From an uncultured bacterium (lineage in GTDB: Bacteria > Hydrothermota > Hydrothermia > UBA1063), in NCBI GenBank assembly GCA_964654765.1, contig CAZZKY010000146.1:14694-78693 (forward strand): a stretch of DNA of 64,000 bases, given 5' to 3'. Position 1 is the first letter of the stretch, and each line of letters starts with the position of its first letter. This document shows, piece by piece, positions 15,455-35,716 of this stretch. Position numbers and translations under genes: made by a program. The notes under the pieces are model-generated. The model worked only from the letters and a program-made list of their open reading frames with translations, was not told the DNA's origin and did not search any database.

Positions 15455-16726
15455 TCAGAAATTTACAGAAAGCAATGTTTGTTTTATCTCCCCGGCAAGA
15501 TAAAAAGATCCAAAAGCAAGAACTTTGTTGCCCTTTTTTCTTGCAATCTCAATAGCTTTCTGGACGTTTTCTGCACTCTTAATTTTTTCTTTTGGCATGC
15601 CGTTTTTCAAAAAAAATTGCAGAAGTTCATCACTACTAAGTGCTCTTGGACTCTGTGAATGGGTGACAATAATGAAACTGGGATTTACTTTTACGATTTC
15701 CTTAATAATTTTCTCATATTCTTTATCCCTGTTTATCCCAAAGACAAAAACACAATCATTTCCGATTATCTTCAATGTAGAGTTGAGGAAGTTTTTTACA
15801 GAGTCGTAATTGTGCGAACCATCTATTATAATGAGTGGATTTTCTGATATAACTTCGAACCTACCTTCAATTTTTATGCCTTCAAAGTTGAAATTTTCAA
15901 AGCCGAGAACTTCAAGAGCTAAAGCAGAGAGTGCCATATTCTTAGCTTGGAAAATTCCGCCCTGGTTTAATAGGAGAAGTTTCTCGCCGGAAAGTCCTTT
16001 GTATTTAATGAGAGTTCTATTTAGCTTTGCTTCGACAAGTTTATACTTTGCATACTCACTTAGCAAATACATTTTAGCCTTTGTTTTTTCACAGGCTTTT
16101 TTTATAACCTGATAGACCGAAGGGTGTTGGCGGGCGACGACAACAGGGTTAAAATTTTTTATTACTGCAGCTTTTTCTCTTGCGATGTCAGTTAACTTAG
16201 GGCCCAAAATGTCCATATGGTCATAACTGATGTTAGTAATAATGGTAAGAATCTGGCTCAAAACATTTGTAGCATCCAGCCTTCCTCCAAGCCCAGCCTC
16301 AAAAACTGCGTAATCCACTTTTTCATCTATGAAGTACAAGAAAGCCATCAAGGTAAGAGTTTCAAATACAGTCTTGAAGCCCCTTTTGCCTTCGATGTGA
16401 GGTTTTATAAGTTCTATATACTTTGTAAAAGCCCTTTCCGGTATTTTTTTGTTGTTTATTTTTATCCTTTCCCTTATGTCTACAAGGTGAGGTGATGTAA
16501 AAAGACCAACTTTGAAGCCAAGGGACTGGAGCCCCCCTGCCACAAGGTGGGCAGTAGATCCCTTGCCTTTTGTTCCTACGATAAGAATAGGGCGTGGAAC
16601 TTTAAGATGCGGATTATCGAATTCTTTAAGAAAATTTAAATAAGGTTCTAAAGATTCAACGTATCCTTTCCTCTTCTCGTAGTCAATTAGGGAATAAAGA
16701 AATTCAACCGCTTCATTAAATTCCAT
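15455..16726 (-). CDS. folC: Folylpolyglutamate synthase / dihydrofolate synthase
   Basis: P-loop 'ILIVGTKGKGSTAHL' and Mur-ligase family features. The start is chosen at 'MEFNEAVEFLYSL', which is a typical FolC N-terminus. The longer ORF (to 16801) would overlap the NUDIX gene by 86 nt. Confidence 0.8.
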   Translation of the reverse strand: MEFNEAVEFLYSLIDYEKRKGYVESLEPYLNFLKEFDNPHLKVPRPILIVGTKGKGSTAHLVAGGLQSLGFKVGLFTSPHLVDIRERIKINNKKIPERAFTKYIELIKPHIEGKRGFKTVFETLTLMAFLYFIDEKVDYAVFEAGLGGRLDATNVLSQILTIITNISYDHMDILGPKLTDIAREKAAVIKNFNPVVVARQHPSVYQVIKKACEKTKAKMYLLSEYAKYKLVEAKLNRTLIKYKGLSGEKLLLLNQGGIFQAKNMALSALALEVLGFENFNFEGIKIEGRFEVISENPLIIIDGSHNYDSVKNFLNSTLKIIGNDCVFVFGINRDKEYEKIIKEIVKVNPSFIIVTHSQSPRALSSDELLQFFLKNGMPKEKIKSAENVQKAIEIARKKGNKVLAFGSFYLAGEIKQTLLSVNF

Positions 16727-17162
16727 GTATTTTTTTGATAAATTCGTGGGCTTCGAGCAAAAGTTCTCTTGCATTCTCAAATTTAAGCTTAATGTATGCA
16801 ACCCTGAGGGGAAACCAACCGTAGTCCGTGTGTTCCTTAGAGAGTTCTATAGGTTCTTTTTTGAAACAGCGCGCAAGAAAGTAGTGGACGTCTTTTGTTA
16901 CTTCTGCCTTATCTTTGATAAAAGTATAGCTTAAAACTTTGTGAAATCCATCAATTATTTCAAAGTTCTCAATTCCAGTCTCTTCCATCATTTCTCTTTT
17001 AGCGGTTGCTAAAAGGTCATTGTTATCTCTGTGTTCTATGTGCCCTTTAGGAAAACTCCAATGAGTCGTGTGTTTTAGAAGCAAGTAAAGGATCCTTTCT
17101 CGGTCTATCGTATAAACTACAAAACCGCTTGAGACTTCCTTTACCTTTTTCAATGGTTTCAT
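16716..17162 (-). CDS. NUDIX hydrolase
   Basis: 148 aa with the Nudix box 'GHIEHRDNNDLLATAKREMMEETGI' (GX5EX7REUXEEXGU). Confidence 0.8.
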   Translation of the reverse strand: MKPLKKVKEVSSGFVVYTIDRERILYLLLKHTTHWSFPKGHIEHRDNNDLLATAKREMMEETGIENFEIIDGFHKVLSYTFIKDKAEVTKDVHYFLARCFKKEPIELSKEHTDYGWFPLRVAYIKLKFENARELLLEAHEFIKKIHGI

Positions 17163-30566: not shown

Positions 30567-31544
30567 TCAGATCCATCCATTTTCTTTATACCATACTAAA
30601 GTTTCGTAAAGTCCTTCCATTAGTGTGTAATCAGGTTTGAAACCTGTTTCCGTGTAAAGTGGAGTAGGGTCCCCAATCCAGTACTTCTGAGCAAGTTCGT
30701 TAGCTTTATCGCTGTTGGCTATAGTGGGATTATTGGTAATTCTGGCAAAGGTTTCACTAAGTTTTAATATTGGTCGAAAGATCCATTCAGGTATGGTGAT
30801 TTTAAGTACTCTTTTTTTTCCATACAGCGATTTTATGTGTTCTACTATTTGCGTCAAAGTCGTGTATTCTGGATTTGAAACAAAATATACTCGGTTAATG
30901 CCGGAGTTTTCGTTTCCAATTAACATCAATATCAGTTTTACAACATCTTTAACGTAGATAATGCTGAGGTATTTCTCACCATTAGGCATGGGGAAAATAC
31001 CACACTTTACATACTGGAAAAACCGCAGAGTTTCTCTGTCGTAAGGCCCGTAAACGGTAGAAAGTCTTAGGATGGTGTAGGGGTACTGCAAATAGTTTAT
31101 TATGTAGTTCTCGGCCATTAGCTTAGATTTTCCATACCAGCTAACGGGTTCAGGTGTATGTTCCACTTTTTTCGGGATTAGTTCATTTGAGGGACCTTGT
31201 GCACTTTGGCTTGAAAGAAATATGAATCTTCTGAGGTTTCCGGGTTTCGCGGTGTTTATCGCATCAATGAGGTTTTTTGTAGTAGTGTAATTTCCTAAAA
31301 TGAAATCTTCCTTTTTCAATGCCTTTATAACTCCTGCACAATGAATGATTACATCAAGGTCTTTCACGAAGTCTACGAGGGACTCTGGATTTTTAAAGTC
31401 GCCGTAAAAAGGCTCTACCTCTGGCCAGAGTATCTCTTGATTCTTAGAACGCATCAGTACTCTAACGGTATGACCATTTTTTATCAGCTCTGGGACTAAA
31501 TTTCGTCCAATAAAACCGGAGGTACCTGTAACACCTATTTGCAT
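30567..31544 (-). CDS. NAD-dependent epimerase/dehydratase family protein (extended SDR)
   Basis: 325 aa with the N-terminal Rossmann fold 'MQIGVTGTSGFIGRNLVPELIKNGHTVRV'. Confidence 0.8.
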   Translation of the reverse strand: MQIGVTGTSGFIGRNLVPELIKNGHTVRVLMRSKNQEILWPEVEPFYGDFKNPESLVDFVKDLDVIIHCAGVIKALKKEDFILGNYTTTKNLIDAINTAKPGNLRRFIFLSSQSAQGPSNELIPKKVEHTPEPVSWYGKSKLMAENYIINYLQYPYTILRLSTVYGPYDRETLRFFQYVKCGIFPMPNGEKYLSIIYVKDVVKLILMLIGNENSGINRVYFVSNPEYTTLTQIVEHIKSLYGKKRVLKITIPEWIFRPILKLSETFARITNNPTIANSDKANELAQKYWIGDPTPLYTETGFKPDYTLMEGLYETLVWYKENGWI

Positions 31545-31587
31545 TGGAGTTTACTCATTATATTGGATTGACCTTATAATTCAAAAT

Positions 31588-32475
31588 ATGCATGGTTTTA
31601 TCTTTGATACCAAGGAATGGAAAGTTGTAGGAATTGATGAGAATGGGTATGGGCCACTTATAGGTCCATTGGTGGTTACTGGTGTCAAAATCAGGATAAA
31701 AGGTACGGATCCACTATCTGCCTCTGAGGCAGAAGGATACCAGTTTCCTATACCTGTAAAGGATAGTAAAGATCTGTTTAAAAGAAGCAAAGGTAGTTAC
31801 CGCGTAGGTGAATCGGTAGTCTTGAGCTTTGTTAAAATGTTGGGTGAAGAAGTGAGAAGTTTGAGTGAACTGATTGAAAAATTTGGGATTCAGAGGATTA
31901 ATTTAAATTCTTATGGACTTTCCGACATGAAAATCCCCCTTTTTGGCGGTTTTGTAAATGAGAGGCTTCTTAACTATTTTGAAAATTGTGGAATTGGCTT
32001 GGAAGAATTGAAATTTTCAATCCTTATGGCTGATAAATTTAATGAACTTATTTCATCCCTTGACAATAAGGCACTTCTTGATTTCCGAATTTTCACCGAA
32101 CTTATGAAAAAGTTTGACTCCTCCCATTTCTTGATGGGTAAAATAGGAGGGACTTCAAAATACGGCAGATTTTTTGAAACTTTTGGTTACAAGTATAAAG
32201 TTTTAGAAGAAAAATTTAATTATTCCGCATATGAGCTTGAAGGTGGGAATTTCCTCTATTTTATAATGGATGGTGATAAAAAGTTTTTGCCCATTATGTT
32301 CGCGGGAATCGTTGGAAAGTACGTGAGGGAATCGGTAATGTTGGCATTATCCAAGGCTCTTGGTTACGAGAATGAAATTCCTTATGCATCTGGCTATTTT
32401 CACGATGCCAAAACCTACGAACTAATCTCGAAGTTGCCAGCTGAACTTAAAAATAAATGGATAAGAGTGCGTTAA
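31588..32475 (+). CDS. Divergent RNase HII-like protein (295 aa) with large insertions
   Basis: 'VVGIDENGYGPLIGPLVV' parallels RNase HII 'GIDEAGRGPLxGPLV', and 'PVKDSKDLFKRSKG' parallels the DSK motif. 'ILMADK' and 'IMDGDKKFLPIMFAGIVGKYVRE' parallel the VDG and KGD-x-AASIxAK-R regions. The conserved GRG arginine is replaced, and there are about 95 extra residues. Confidence 0.45.
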   Translation: MHGFIFDTKEWKVVGIDENGYGPLIGPLVVTGVKIRIKGTDPLSASEAEGYQFPIPVKDSKDLFKRSKGSYRVGESVVLSFVKMLGEEVRSLSELIEKFGIQRINLNSYGLSDMKIPLFGGFVNERLLNYFENCGIGLEELKFSILMADKFNELISSLDNKALLDFRIFTELMKKFDSSHFLMGKIGGTSKYGRFFETFGYKYKVLEEKFNYSAYELEGGNFLYFIMDGDKKFLPIMFAGIVGKYVRESVMLALSKALGYENEIPYASGYFHDAKTYELISKLPAELKNKWIRVR

Positions 32476-33662
32476 TTTTTAATCAGCCCATCAGATCTAT
32501 GCTTTTCTCCTATCGCCTTTGCCAGTTTTTCGAGAGATTCATAGGCATTTTGGTCTGGTAACCCCTTAAAGGAGATTACATCAATAATTTCACCTTTGAA
32601 GTTGGAAAAAATGTTCTTAAGGTCATCAACTGTTTTTCCTCCCCATCCGTAAGAGTTAATTATAGCTAAATATTTTGTTTTTGGCCTTAATGCGTTGGCG
32701 AGGTACGTATAGTAAACAGTAAGGGGATGGGCACTGGCGAGCACTGTGGGTGTGGCTATGATTAGAGTGGCAATGTCAATCAGAGCCATTGCAATTTCTC
32801 CGGTATCTGCGACGGTCAGGTTGAAAACTTTCACATTCACACCTTCGTCAATGAGTTTTTGCTCTAAAAATCTTACAGCTCTTTCTACGCTATGGTGCAT
32901 AGAAACGTAAAGAATGGCTACCAAGTTTTCCACCTTATTGGATGACCAGTCCTTATATGCGTTGATAATAAATTGTGGATTTGTGTAGATTGGACCGTGG
33001 CTTGGGCAGATCATATCAGGAGAAAAATTCTCTATTTTCTCGATGTTTTTGGGTATCATATTTCTGAATGGTGCCATTATTTCTGCGTAGTATCTTTTTG
33101 CTGCGGTGTAAAGTTCTGGTGTTCCGTCACTCGTAAACTCTGTGGTAGGCAGGTGTGAACCAAAGAAGTCGCAAGTAAAAGCGATTTTATCTTCTAAAAG
33201 TAGGGTTGTTTGAGTCTCTGGCCAATGTACCCAAGGTGTCATGATAAATTTGAGGGTTTTTCCTCCGAGGTCAATGGTGTCTCCTTCTCCTATCACCATG
33301 AATTTATCTTGAGGGATTTGGAGGTGGGTTTTCAGGAGTTCGGCACACTTTTCATTCGTAACGACAATTGATTCAGGAAACAGGTTTAGAACTGCCGGAA
33401 TCGCGCCTGAGTGGTCTTGCTCAGCATGGTTGGAAATGATGTAGTCTATTCTGTTTATCCCAATGGATTTTAAGTCGCTGAGGAATTCTTCAACTTTTAA
33501 GGTATCGGTAGTGTCAATAAGGGCAGTTTTGCTTTTTCCTTTAATAAGGTATGCATTGTAAGTGGTTCCTTCGGGTAAGGGAATCAGCTCGTCAAAAAGT
33601 CTCCTTTCCCAGTGTAAAGTGTTTATTAGATACAAATCTTCTTTGATTTTTTTAACAGCCAT
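32472..33662 (-). CDS. Flavodiiron protein (A-type flavoprotein; rubredoxin:oxygen oxidoreductase / NO reductase)
   Basis: 396 aa. The metallo-beta-lactamase-like diiron motif 'ISNHAEQDHSGAIP' (H-x-E-x-D-H) is followed by a flavodoxin-like C-terminal domain. It sits in an operon with perR, flavodoxin and flavin reductase. Confidence 0.9.
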   Translation of the reverse strand: MAVKKIKEDLYLINTLHWERRLFDELIPLPEGTTYNAYLIKGKSKTALIDTTDTLKVEEFLSDLKSIGINRIDYIISNHAEQDHSGAIPAVLNLFPESIVVTNEKCAELLKTHLQIPQDKFMVIGEGDTIDLGGKTLKFIMTPWVHWPETQTTLLLEDKIAFTCDFFGSHLPTTEFTSDGTPELYTAAKRYYAEIMAPFRNMIPKNIEKIENFSPDMICPSHGPIYTNPQFIINAYKDWSSNKVENLVAILYVSMHHSVERAVRFLEQKLIDEGVNVKVFNLTVADTGEIAMALIDIATLIIATPTVLASAHPLTVYYTYLANALRPKTKYLAIINSYGWGGKTVDDLKNIFSNFKGEIIDVISFKGLPDQNAYESLEKLAKAIGEKHRSDGLIKN

Positions 33663-33665
33663 ATT

Positions 33666-34181
33666 TTACTCCTTTTCTTCCTTTAGGTAAGTAGAGGCAG
33701 TTTTAGGTGTTTTTCCCTTGACTTCTTTGTGGTAGTACTCGTAGGTCATCGGTGTTTTTTCGGATAATATGTCAGCGTCAAGAATTTCCCCCACAAAAAT
33801 GGTGTGGGTTCCCGCATCAAGGCTGTTGACGACCTTACATTCAATGTATGCACAGGTATAATCAATTATTACGGGTAAATCATTAACAGTGATTTTATAG
33901 TTTACATTTTCAAATTTGTTAATATCTCTTCCACTCTTGAATCCAAATTTGCCTATGAAGGTGAAGGGGGTTTCTTGAGTAAGAACCGAAACCGAAAATT
34001 TCCCACTTTTTGAGACCATTTCGTGCGTTAAGTTCAATTTGTTAAGGGCAACGGCTACCTTAATAGGTTCTGATGTGACCTGAAAGACTGTGTTGGCAAC
34101 TTGCCCGTTAATTTTTTCACCATCTTTAGTTGCCACAATGTAAAGGCCGTAACTTAATTTTGTTAATGCAGATAGATTCAT
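33666..34181 (-). CDS. Flavin reductase-like (FMN-binding split-barrel) protein
   Basis: The start is set at 'MNLSALTKLSYGLYIVATKDGEKINGQ', which abuts the flavodoxin stop. The flavin_reduct-type beta-barrel motifs are present. Confidence 0.75.
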   Translation of the reverse strand: MNLSALTKLSYGLYIVATKDGEKINGQVANTVFQVTSEPIKVAVALNKLNLTHEMVSKSGKFSVSVLTQETPFTFIGKFGFKSGRDINKFENVNYKITVNDLPVIIDYTCAYIECKVVNSLDAGTHTIFVGEILDADILSEKTPMTYEYYHKEVKGKTPKTASTYLKEEKE

Positions 34182-34182
34182 C

Positions 34183-34686
34183 TTAAATTTTCTCCTTTTG
34201 CAAAAAATTTTCGAGTTTTTGGGCGTATTCACCTGACTTGAGTTCTGAATCTCTCAGGAATAAGCTGGCTTTTGGCTTTGTGCCAGCTATTTTATAAATC
34301 TGCTCGACGATTTTTGCATTCTTTTCACCAAATCCCGATACTGATATCAGTGTAATTTCAGATTTTTTTAGGTTTTCAGAGAATTTTCTCAAAAAACTTG
34401 CCACTGGGGCAGGAAGATGCCCCGCCCATACTGGAGTGACCAGATAAATGTGGGTGAATTCTTCTCCGATTTCTCGTGACAATGTAAAAGGTACGTTCTT
34501 TTTAGTAAGTGCGTAGAAGGAGTCTTTAAAAAAGTTTCTTTTTGAGTTGTCTTCAATCTTCGAGATGTATATGCCTTTTAGCCTTGAAATCTCAATGGCA
34601 ATTTTCTGATTGTTCCCAGTTCCTGAAAAGTAAACTATAATCTCGCTCAATTTTTCTCTTCCTTCTCCATTAAACACCTTCTGCAT
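34183..34686 (-). CDS. Flavodoxin-like protein
   Basis: 'IIVYFSGTGNNQKIA' is the flavodoxin phosphate-binding loop. The true start is probably the TTG at 34650 ('LSEIIVYF...'), which overlaps the perR stop in a TTGA arrangement and is preceded by GAAGGAAG. The ATG at 34686 would overlap perR by 40 nt. Confidence 0.7.
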   Translation of the reverse strand: MQKVFNGEGREKLSEIIVYFSGTGNNQKIAIEISRLKGIYISKIEDNSKRNFFKDSFYALTKKNVPFTLSREIGEEFTHIYLVTPVWAGHLPAPVASFLRKFSENLKKSEITLISVSGFGEKNAKIVEQIYKIAGTKPKASLFLRDSELKSGEYAQKLENFLQKEKI

Positions 34687-35084
34687 ACGCCTTCTAAATA
34701 TAGATCTTGAGTTTTTACAAGGTGTCCATCTCCAACTTTTTTGGAAGTAAAATCGGGGATTTCAACTTCTATGTCGTATATTCGGCCACATTCAATGCAG
34801 TGGAAATGGGCATGGGGTTCGATGAATGCGTCTACCCTGAGCTCCTTAGAGTCTATCATCACCAGTTTAATAACCCCTTTCTTCACCAACGCTTCTATTG
34901 TATTGTAGACAGTAGTTTTTGAAAGGGTTGGCAATTCAGCACTTATGTGTTTGTATATTTCATCGGCGGACGGGTGGGTTCTATTTTTAAGCAGGAACTC
35001 AAGAATTTTTATTCTTTGAACAGATGGTTGGATGTTGTGTCTTTTTAAAATATTTTTTGCCTTTTCCGTAATTTCATTTTTCAT
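34647..35084 (-). CDS. perR: Fur family peroxide-responsive repressor (PerR-like)
   Basis: 145 aa with 'HPSADEIYKHI', the regulatory-site histidines 'HAHFHCIECGRIYDIE' and the structural Zn site 'CxxC...CRRC'. It heads an O2/peroxide-detoxification operon. Confidence 0.8.
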   Translation of the reverse strand: MKNEITEKAKNILKRHNIQPSVQRIKILEFLLKNRTHPSADEIYKHISAELPTLSKTTVYNTIEALVKKGVIKLVMIDSKELRVDAFIEPHAHFHCIECGRIYDIEVEIPDFTSKKVGDGHLVKTQDLYLEGVCRRCLMEKEEKN

Positions 35085-35716
35085 TTAAAAACCTCCCCGG
35101 TTTCCTTTGCCCATAGAAGCATATCGAGGTGGGCAAAGGGAATACCTATTTGATTTGAAAATTTTCTCATTTTTTCCTCTATTAGCAAGTAATTTTTTGC
35201 GGTAAAAGTTCCTGGTAGGCTACTAATAACTCCCAGCTTTAGAAGGTTACGAAGGATGTGCCTGTCGAGGATTGCAAGGTCAAAATGCCCTGTGTTTCTC
35301 AAAAAGTGACTGGCCTCTTTCATACCAATACCTTTAAAATTTTTCACAAGGAATGTTCTTTTTTCATTAGAAGGTATCGAGCCTTTTACAAATTCTTTGA
35401 GATTAAAACTCATTTCCTCTATTTTTTGCAGATTTTGGACAACAAATTTGGCTTTATTATTGGGAAATCTAACACCTTTTAAAAACTTTTTGATTTCCTC
35501 TTCTGATGGATTTAGATACGCCTTGCTGTCGAATATATTTTCTACAGCTTTCCAGCAAACTTTTGCCTTTGATTGGGGTGTCAGGGTACAAAAAATGAAC
35601 TCCTTCAAAATCTCAGTTTCACAATCATCTTTCTTTGTCTTAAATTCTTCAAGCCTCTGTTCTATCTGAGCCTTCAGATTCTCGTAAAGCTTTGTAAGTT
35701 TTTCTATTTCATTCAT
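35081..35716 (-). CDS. ogg: 8-oxoguanine DNA glycosylase / AP lyase, Ogg2 (archaeal/Thermotoga type, HhH-GPD)
   Basis: 211 aa. 'GIGMKEASHFLRNTGHFDLAILDRHILRNL' is nearly identical in pattern to Thermotoga/Methanocaldococcus Ogg ('GIGWKEASHFLRNTG..DLAILDKHVLR'), and the catalytic Lys is in 'GMKEAS'. Confidence 0.8.
   Translation of the reverse strand: MNEIEKLTKLYENLKAQIEQRLEEFKTKKDDCETEILKEFIFCTLTPQSKAKVCWKAVENIFDSKAYLNPSEEEIKKFLKGVRFPNNKAKFVVQNLQKIEEMSFNLKEFVKGSIPSNEKRTFLVKNFKGIGMKEASHFLRNTGHFDLAILDRHILRNLLKLGVISSLPGTFTAKNYLLIEEKMRKFSNQIGIPFAHLDMLLWAKETGEVFK

Follow-up and report, generated by a model that had tools for sequence, protein, structure and literature searches.

The DNA analysed here is a 64-kb window (the term denotes the whole stretch) from a contig of an uncultured Hydrothermia bacterium. 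It encodes, at 31588..32475 on the + strand, an RNase HII-like protein that we call X. Homologues align with the open reading frame (ORF) from Met1 onwards. A protein on record that is 100% identical to X is assigned to a candidate division WOR-3 bacterium and assemblies of WOR-3 and 'Candidatus Hydrothermia' supply relatives that share 44-74% identity; proteins of this type are at present annotated as 'hypothetical' and now and then as 'ribonuclease HII'. We find that X has the fold of a type 2 RNase H, with changes at signature residues, and that its family is a distinct, so far undescribed clade of type 2 RNase H. The following parts of the gene and its product are referred to throughout, with residues numbered as in X.

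31588..32475, + strand: complete ORF of X, 295 amino acids plus stop, with an ATG start
31630..31653, + strand: beta1 active-site strand, G15-I-D17-E18-N19-G20-Y21-G22, with D17 and E18 as the first two catalytic carboxylates and a G-x-G that has Tyr for Arg
31762..31770, + strand: DSK motif, D59 S60 K61, aligned to the canonical DSK
31810..31812, + strand: Glu75 on helix alphaA (residues 68-84), Glu in 238/245 family members and not conserved in the aligned canonical sequences
31840..31995, + strand: insertion 1, residues ~85-136, between helix alphaA and strand beta3, ~50 residues, mostly helical, the main source of the extra length
32020..32037, + strand: 'ILMADK', I145-K150, at the end of strand beta3 (137-146), non-catalytic
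32125..32154, + strand: strand beta4 and 'GKIGGT' loop (H180-T189), with Gly184 at the position of the canonical third catalytic Asp, followed by Lys185
32182..32250, + strand: insertion 2, about residues 199-221, a beta-hairpin (strands 203-208 and 212-217) between the post-beta4 helix and beta5 (222-226)
32269..32277, + strand: D228-G229-D230, with D230 as the fourth catalytic Asp and D228, a candidate for the relocated third carboxylate, where canonical enzymes have the Lys of 'hKaD'/'vKGD'
32302..32331, + strand: 'AGIVGKYVRE', residues 239-248, a helix equivalent to the canonical 'AASIlAKvxRD'
32389..32415, + strand: 'SGYFHDAKT', S268-T276, a motif of the archaeal/eukaryal type 'GSGYPsDPxT' with Y270 as the junction-sensing Tyr

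Relationship to the type 2 RNases H

X matches PF01351 (RNase_HII) and no other Pfam family, scoring 43.9 bits against a gathering score of 25.8, with the best stretch of the match limited to residues 14-66 (53 residues; profile positions 1-44 of 199). A profile built from 64 family members extends this relationship. It finds the archaeal RNase HII structures (E=1e-13), human H2A (9e-8), the RNases HII of S. aureus (2e-6) and T. maritima (8e-5) and, with 2e-3, RNase HIII, and the match falls in two blocks, residues ~9-107 and ~232-294, which are the N- and C-terminal cores. When hhalign was run against the single sequence from Thermococcus kodakarensis (Tk), the C-terminal block alone was aligned. 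X has the topology of the type 2 RNase H fold together with the C-terminal helix-loop-helix domain, and an AlphaFold2 model computed on the family alignment reached a mean predicted local distance difference test score (pLDDT) of 94.6 and a predicted template modelling score (pTM) of 0.93. Judged by the profile scores, the clade is nearest to the archaeal/eukaryal RNase HII/H2A type. A first-pass annotation of this DNA had recognized the beta1 D-E strand and the DSK motif of RNase HII in GIDENGYGPLIGPLVV and the following 'KDSKDL', and the Pfam and archaeal profile scores bear this out.

The family is large. An exhaustive profile search of 1.84 billion cluster representatives (50% identity clusters) returned 836 proteins at E<=1e-30, a number that rises to 2233 at E<=1e-10 and to 5351 at E<=1e-3, and the best 150 matches are nearly all 280-350 amino acids long and aligned end-to-end. 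A scan with a single peptide pattern over 185,579 species representatives, one genome per species, found the family in at least 131 loci/species. The hosts belong to WOR-3/Hydrothermia, Myxococcota (Polyangiales and relatives), Omnitrophota, Aerophobetes, Caldiserica, Ratteibacteria and Calescibacterium, with one metagenome-assembled genome (MAG) each from Planctomycetales and Dependentiae; all the named host lineages are diderm bacteria. The initial suggestion of a lineage-specific rnhB was thus right as to an altered type 2 RNase H but not as to the lineage, because the substitutions and insertions define a family that spans many bacterial phyla. The published classification of type 2 RNases H knows three subclusters only, namely bacterial H2, archaeal plus eukaryal H2, and H3 (Majorek et al., PMC3985635), and we came across no account of a fourth group of the X type.

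Catalytic and substrate-binding residues

Active-site residues were mapped by aligning the family with canonical enzymes. The sequences of the M. jannaschii (Mj) and P. horikoshii enzymes were taken from tool outputs, E. coli RnhB was checked to be identical to the annotated gene, and those of Tk, human H2A and T. maritima (Tma) completed the set. The catalytic residues we take to be D7/E8/D112/D149 in Mj, D7/E8/D105/D135 in Tk, D18/E19/D107/D124 in Tma and D34/E35/D141/D169 in the human enzyme. Conservation is given for 245 non-redundant family members (241 at D17/E18).

D17 and E18 are present in all 241 sequences. Directly after them, the Ala of the canonical DEA is replaced by N19 (Asn in 237/245 members), and the Arg of the canonical GRG has given way to a hydrophobic residue, Leu in 143, Tyr in 72 and Phe in 23 members (238/245 together), never R or K; X itself reads G20-Y21-G22 and has no GRG motif with a central minor-groove Arg. 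Both replacements had been noticed in the first-pass annotation and prove to be family-wide. S60 and K61 of the DSK motif are present in 245/245 members.

The first-pass annotation had placed one of the distal carboxylates in 'ILMADK'. This segment lies at the end of beta3, just before the helix that matches the canonical 'EID..NIL/LNE' segment, and its D149 is Asp in only 15/245 members, the conserved residue there being N152 (226/245), so that a catalytic role for it has to be abandoned. A phmmer comparison with PDB entries 1uax and 1eke aligned residues 145-157, ILMADKFNELISS, with the archaeal fourth-Asp motif EHKADAKYEIVSA, which is a mis-registration: the profile and multiple alignments put the true fourth-Asp motif 80 residues downstream of this placement. 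The likeness of 'ILMADK' to 'HKADAK' is the same mis-registration as made by phmmer.

At the end of beta4, 'IYID112ACSTNT-KKF' of Mj and 'VFVD141TVGMP-ETY' of the human enzyme align with 'FLMG184KIGGT-SKY192' of X, where the Gly at +3 and the aromatic at +8 serve as anchors. The third catalytic Asp expected at the C-terminal end of this strand is therefore missing from X, and position 184 is Gly in 236 members, Asp in seven and His in two. It is followed at position 185 by Lys in 190, Met in 31 and Arg in 13 members, and Y192 is found in 244/245. Hence the earlier statement that all catalytic acids look retained does not hold literally, since the position of Mj D112 and human D141 is occupied by Gly184.

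The fourth carboxylate is clear, as had been proposed for 'MDGDKK...FAGIVGKYVRE'. D230 aligns with Tk D135 and Mj D149, and 'GD230KKFLPIMFAGIVGKYVRE' corresponds to the canonical 'kaDxxxpvvsAASIlAKvxRD' block. Position 230 is always acidic (Asp in 192 members, Glu in 53), K244 and R247 are found in 245/245 members and E248 in 233, and position 228 is Asp in 164 and Asn in 50. Further downstream the motif S268-G-Y270-x-x-D273-x-x-T276 has G269 and Y270 in 245/245 members, with Y270 aligned to the 'GSGY' of the Tk, Mj, A. fulgidus (Af) and human enzymes, and the C-terminal 'IRVR' of X resembles the canonical 'IVRKGW' and 'FVRFSW'. Finally, Glu75 may be an additional active-site residue, as its conservation and its position on helix alphaA make it a candidate; in type 1 RNase H this helix carries a catalytic Glu.

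The third metal ligand

The seven members with Asp184 are mutually distant (27-42% identity) and each is nearest to members with Gly184. Their residues at position 228 are G, G, G, G, N, K and R, none of them Asp. Among the Gly184 members, on the other hand, Asp228 occurs in 162/236 (69%) and Asp or Asn in 211/236. Family members have an acidic residue at 184 (3% of 245) or Asp at 228, never both, and this either/or covariation has Fisher p-values of 3.8e-4 (Asp) and 1.7e-5 (Asp/Asn). Position 228, which precedes the fourth Asp by two residues, is where beta5 ends C-terminally; as this strand is the parallel neighbour of beta4 in the sheet, 184 and 228 are expected to lie side by side. Three of the DEDD side chains hold metal B in T. 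maritima RNase HII (PMC13492167), so that a relocated carboxylate would be mechanistically meaningful. The covariation suggests that the third carboxylate has moved to the end of the neighbouring strand: the ligand of metal B would have shifted from position 184, where beta4 ends, to Asp228 at the end of beta5, the parallel strand beside it, rebuilding a DEDD-like site. With G184, K185, D228 and D230, X plausibly possesses such a site. The proposal that 'MDGDKK' represents a distal catalytic Asp region is in this respect partly vindicated.

Two other replacements for the lost Asp were considered and rejected. Lys185 cannot serve in general, as the Myxococcota clade has Met185 (31/245) and the Asp184 members also carry Lys or Arg at 185; Glu208 is variable in the Myxococcota clade.

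Several points weigh against a relocated carboxylate. The Fisher p-values overstate the independence of the seven Asp184 sequences, which may share ancestry. The proximity of D228, and likewise of Glu75, to D17, E18 and D230 is deduced from fold topology and covariation and should be read as a prediction. Moreover, Asn228 is found in 21% of members, including most close relatives of X (P0002, P0003, P0008, P0010 and P0011; P0005 has His), and a carboxylate at 228 is therefore not strictly required. In canonical enzymes D-to-N changes are reportedly inactivating, the T. maritima D107N mutant being the one used for crystallography.

Insertions and a cysteine site

The first-pass annotation had estimated about 95 extra residues, which is roughly right, and had located some 65 of them between the third and fourth acidic motifs, which is not. 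According to the predicted secondary structure and the alignment to canonical enzymes, only the hairpin of ~20 residues (insertion 2), missing from the aligned canonical enzymes, lies there, and the main insertion separates alphaA from beta3. Across the family insertion 1 has a median length of 61 residues (range 8-108). Minor additions in X comprise ~10 residues at the N-terminus, ~8 between beta2 and DSK and ~6 after DSK.

In 158/245 members insertion 1 contains a C-x(4-16)-C pair (modal spacing 7) that is accompanied by a C-terminal 'CxxR' (for example P0053, P0044 and P0056). Among these 158, Cys147 is found in 156 and Cys183 in 121. The equivalents of the Cys positions in X are residues 85-136, M147, M183 and W291, and 61 members, including X and many of its WOR-3 relatives, have none of these Cys. 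In the 64% of the family that has it, X not being among them, the four-Cys arrangement looks like a Zn or Fe-S site.

Comparison with canonical enzymes

X shares with the archaeal RNases HII (Tk, 1IO2; A. fulgidus, 3P83/1I39; M. jannaschii, 1EKE) and eukaryotic RNase H2A (3PUF) the D-E of beta1, the DSK, the fourth Asp with its 'ASIxxKxxR(D/E)' helix, the 'SGYxxDxxT' motif with the junction Tyr and the C-terminal 'xVR'. It departs from them in having Gly184 for the third Asp, Asp228 for the Lys two residues before the fourth Asp, Tyr (L/Y/F in the family) for the GRG Arg and DEN for DEA, and in the ~50-residue insertion after alphaA and the beta-hairpin before beta5. E75, N152 and Y192 are peculiar to the X family, as is the four-Cys site of most members.

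The same differences apply with respect to bacterial RNase HII (T. maritima, 3O3F; E. coli RnhB, 7UWH), to which the similarity is weaker (E=8e-5). DE, DSK, the fourth Asp and the junction Tyr are common to both, but the C-terminal motif is 'hKGY' in the bacterial enzymes where X has 'SGYxxDxxT', and none of the NCBIfam rnhB equivalogs reaches its cut-off. A stand-alone housekeeping gene, which in some lineages lies in a bamA-lpx neighbourhood as does E. coli rnhB, is a further point of likeness.

RNase HIII keeps the third Asp (DEDE motif). It is distinguished by an N-terminal substrate-binding, TBP-like domain of ~80-90 amino acids and by having no invariant junction Tyr; in X beta1 starts at residue 9-13, with 12 residues before it, and the Tyr is kept. 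The rnhC model TIGR00716 scores 11.3 bits on X against a cut-off of 161.2. As in RNase HIII (Thermovibrio, 4PY5; Geobacillus, 2D0A; Aquifex, 3VN5), the fourth acidic residue may be Glu, which is the case for 53/245 members, and the central Arg of GRG is absent (PMC13492167).

Genomic context

The immediate neighbours of X are:

30567..31544, - strand: NAD-dependent epimerase/dehydratase, upstream and divergent, 43 bp from X, syntenic in Hydrothermia relatives
32472..33662, - strand: flavodiiron-type metallo-beta-lactamase (ODP) protein, downstream and convergent, with a 4-bp overlap with X

With the upstream gene divergent and the downstream gene convergent, X should form a single transcription unit, and its description as a stand-alone gene is accurate. 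The GC content of X (0.37-0.38) equals that of its flanks, with no sign of recent transfer in this comparison, and the order epimerase / X / oxidative-stress genes is found again in Hydrothermia relatives. X is thus a resident gene that is vertically inherited within the Hydrothermia clade. The genes downstream of X at 32472-35716 (- strand) encode the flavodiiron/ODP protein, a flavin reductase, a flavodoxin, a Fur-family regulator and an 8-oxoguanine glycosylase (Ogg-HhH), and this oxidative-stress-type run is syntenic in Hydrothermia relatives. A promoter and terminator scan around X found no excess over shuffled sequence and no terminator-like site 3' of X. The only strong sigma-70-like match of the region (31584..31557, - strand, 10/12 positions) falls in the 43-bp gap between the two divergent start codons (31545-31587) and would serve the epimerase gene. 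A PADLOC scan for defence-protein models gave no match to X, and the neighbours are housekeeping genes.

For the family as a whole, loci were split into 26 independent groups at 45% identity of X. Neither neighbour clustering nor a Pfam census in these groups revealed a conserved gene partner: with one locus per group and two genes on each side, the census counted 121 families among 95 proteins, none of them in more than two groups (for example GyrA, epimerase, radical SAM and metallophosphoesterase twice each; UvrD, TatD and endonuclease V once each). Across three or more groups nothing recurs but an Omp85/BamA gene within 4 kb of X, seen in 4/26 groups where a rough estimate would predict ~0.3 by chance. 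Two of these four have an enoyl-CoA hydratase neighbour in common and are perhaps not independent.

In Omnitrophota (L042, L052) the order is bamA-skp-lpxD-lpxC/fabZ-lpxA-X-malQ and in the uncultured L006 group bamA-htrA-folP-X-?-tilS-hpt-ftsH, to be compared with bamA-skp-lpxD-fabZ-lpxA-lpxB-rnhB-dnaE-...-tilS in E. coli. In both lineages X therefore occupies an rnhB-like slot. The Omnitrophota cluster includes a fused LpxC-FabZ (LpxC and FabA-like domains in one ORF of 441-455 amino acids; L042:7836-9200 and L052:3229-4551), has no lpxB or lpxI beside lpxA and ends in X and the 4-alpha-glucanotransferase gene. In 19 Myxococcota loci a gene for RNase HI follows on the strand of X, 2-3 kb downstream and past the gene for an AI-2E-family permease. 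These loci represent one synteny block, RluA-TPR-MepA-?-X-permease-?-rnhA, and in L082:13014-13733 the RNase HI homologue has PF00075 at residues 103-229 of a 240-amino-acid stop-to-stop frame. The rnhB-like slots together with the Myxococcota rnhA contexts modestly favour a housekeeping role of the RNase HII type. MotA/ExbB-type and ExbD/TolR-type genes adjoin X at L003:7210-7890, L078:9541-9948 and in L085 (Nitrospirae and Ratteibacteria/Omnitrophota-like MAGs), possibly by chance.

Co-occurrence with canonical enzymes was scanned with the family hidden Markov model and E. coli RnhA and RnhB as probes, the RnhB probe matching the real gene exactly. Neither the 64-kb window nor the 10 kb on either side of X in 87 related loci (1.24 Mb) contained a canonical type 2 RNase H, which is a weak test. 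The ORF at 16716-17162 (- strand, 148 amino acids), a weak match to the RNase HI probe, proved to be a NUDIX hydrolase (PF00293, 55.8 bits). In metagenome contigs scanned from lpxA, 19 loci have neither X nor rnhB downstream of that gene, and four related ones have LpxI in the slot after lpxA, followed in one by LpxB.

Possible functions of X

On balance we consider it probable that X is an active nuclease serving as the RNase HII-type enzyme of the cell. It would act as a divalent-metal-dependent endonuclease on RNA-DNA hybrids or RNA-DNA junctions, with a probable housekeeping role in the removal of ribonucleotides or primers. According to a 2026 review, the GRG motif of RNase HII inserts its Arg22 as a wedge along the minor groove, an Arg that stabilises the catalytic Glu as well, while the backbone amides of GRG bind the 2'-OH and Tyr163 completes the junction sensor; RNase HIII is without both the Arg and the Tyr and recognizes single ribonucleotides poorly (PMC13492167). 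X keeps both glycines of the G-x-G and the junction Tyr, and the Arg position is hydrophobic across the family. Loss of the minor-groove Arg with the Tyr kept would alter junction recognition, not abolish it, and we infer from this combination that X may be a hybrid or junction nuclease of changed specificity, between HII and HIII. It speaks against a role as the ordinary RNase HII that nine NCBIfam rnhB models and the rnhC model are all below cut-off on X, the best being TIGR00729 with 34.9 of the 123.3 bits required. The wider proposal of a fourth class of type 2 RNase H, with a relocated carboxylate and in most members a Zn or Fe-S site, that would have displaced canonical rnhB in several candidate phyla, is tentative, although we think it possible.

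X might instead be a neofunctionalised accessory paralogue beside a canonical rnhB, directed to another substrate (R-loops, a structured hybrid, a damaged junction) and not to general ribonucleotide excision repair. The patchy distribution of the family over several phyla would be in keeping with this, and the greater resemblance to the archaeal/eukaryal type (E=1e-13 against 8e-5) is easier to reconcile with an old paralogue or a transfer than with divergence of a bacterial rnhB in situ. The junction sensor is half dismantled, with the Arg lost as in RNase HIII (PMC13492167), and the family has conserved residues of its own in E75, N152 and Y192, besides the four-Cys site. Yet no canonical enzyme turned up in the surroundings of X, weak as this test is, X is found in rnhB-like slots in two groups, and redundancy is less expected in the seemingly small Hydrothermia genomes (contigs of 1.0-1.7 Mb), which mildly favours a single enzyme. 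We regard an accessory paralogue as unlikely, though deserving serious attention.

A catalytically dead or strongly impaired pseudo-enzyme, acting as a sensor of RNA-DNA hybrids or junctions or as a scaffold, would account for the absence of the canonical third Asp from 97% of members, for the presence of Asn, His, Lys, Gly or Ser at position 228 in about 30% and for the loss of the Arg that stabilises the catalytic Glu. However, the invariance of D17, E18, the acidic residue 230, DSK, K244 and R247 across 245 diverged sequences is hard to explain without catalysis or metal binding, and the either/or pattern at 184 and 228 implies selection for a third ligand. That X has lost its activity altogether or for the most part is in our view quite improbable.

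The position of X directly after lpxA in the two Omnitrophota loci raises the question of a function outside nucleic acids: with its RNase H fold, X could be a phosphodiesterase or pyrophosphatase that serves cell-envelope biogenesis, such as an analogue of LpxH, LpxI or LpxG. In its most specific form the family would be a fourth, non-homologous UDP-2,3-diacylglucosamine pyrophosphatase recruited to outer-membrane and lipid A biogenesis; the G-x-G/Tyr pocket would then bind uridine, and the hydrophobic replacement of the Arg (L, Y or F) together with insertion 1 would bind acyl chains. X is similar in size to LpxI (UDP-2,3-diacylglucosamine hydrolase), which takes the same slot in the four metagenome loci mentioned above, and the recurrent Omp85/BamA genes and diderm hosts would be in line with such a role. 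A cultured WOR-3 strain, sy37 (2.39 Mb, 60.6% GC), has an outer membrane and some lipopolysaccharide genes; it belongs to another lineage than the host of X, and its papers give no information on RNase H. Against all this, the lpx link is seen in a single one of the 26 groups, the unbiased census of neighbours shows no recurring envelope family and the Myxococcota contexts hold rnhA, not lpx genes. E. coli rnhB lies in the same cluster, so that an RNase HII role explains the position equally well. The junction Tyr is invariant, as is the C-terminal substrate-binding domain as a whole, and X has no sequence or fold relationship to LpxI, a comparison with Metallophos (LpxH/LpxG) and LpxI_N/LpxI_C yielding no homology. 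Both the general and the specific form of this idea are very improbable. Lastly, that the motifs match by chance and the ORF is no relative of RNase H could appeal to the confinement of the best PF01351 stretch to the N-terminal 53 residues, and is ruled out for practical purposes by the profile matches at both termini and the 836 related clusters.

Significance

Few nucleic-acid enzymes are as conserved as the type 2 RNases H, and the X family points to a fourth sizeable group of them. Three departures set it apart: a catalytic carboxylate lost and apparently re-created, half of the junction sensor gone, and a four-Cys site in most members. It is a widespread, uncharacterised clade with a remodelled active site and junction sensor, neither an artefact nor a one-off. 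If active, these enzymes would constitute a natural experiment on the plasticity of the two-metal RNase H active site and would provide a test of what the GRG Arg contributes to the recognition of single ribonucleotides. They would also raise the question whether ribonucleotide excision repair in WOR-3, Omnitrophota and some Myxococcota can run on a non-canonical enzyme.

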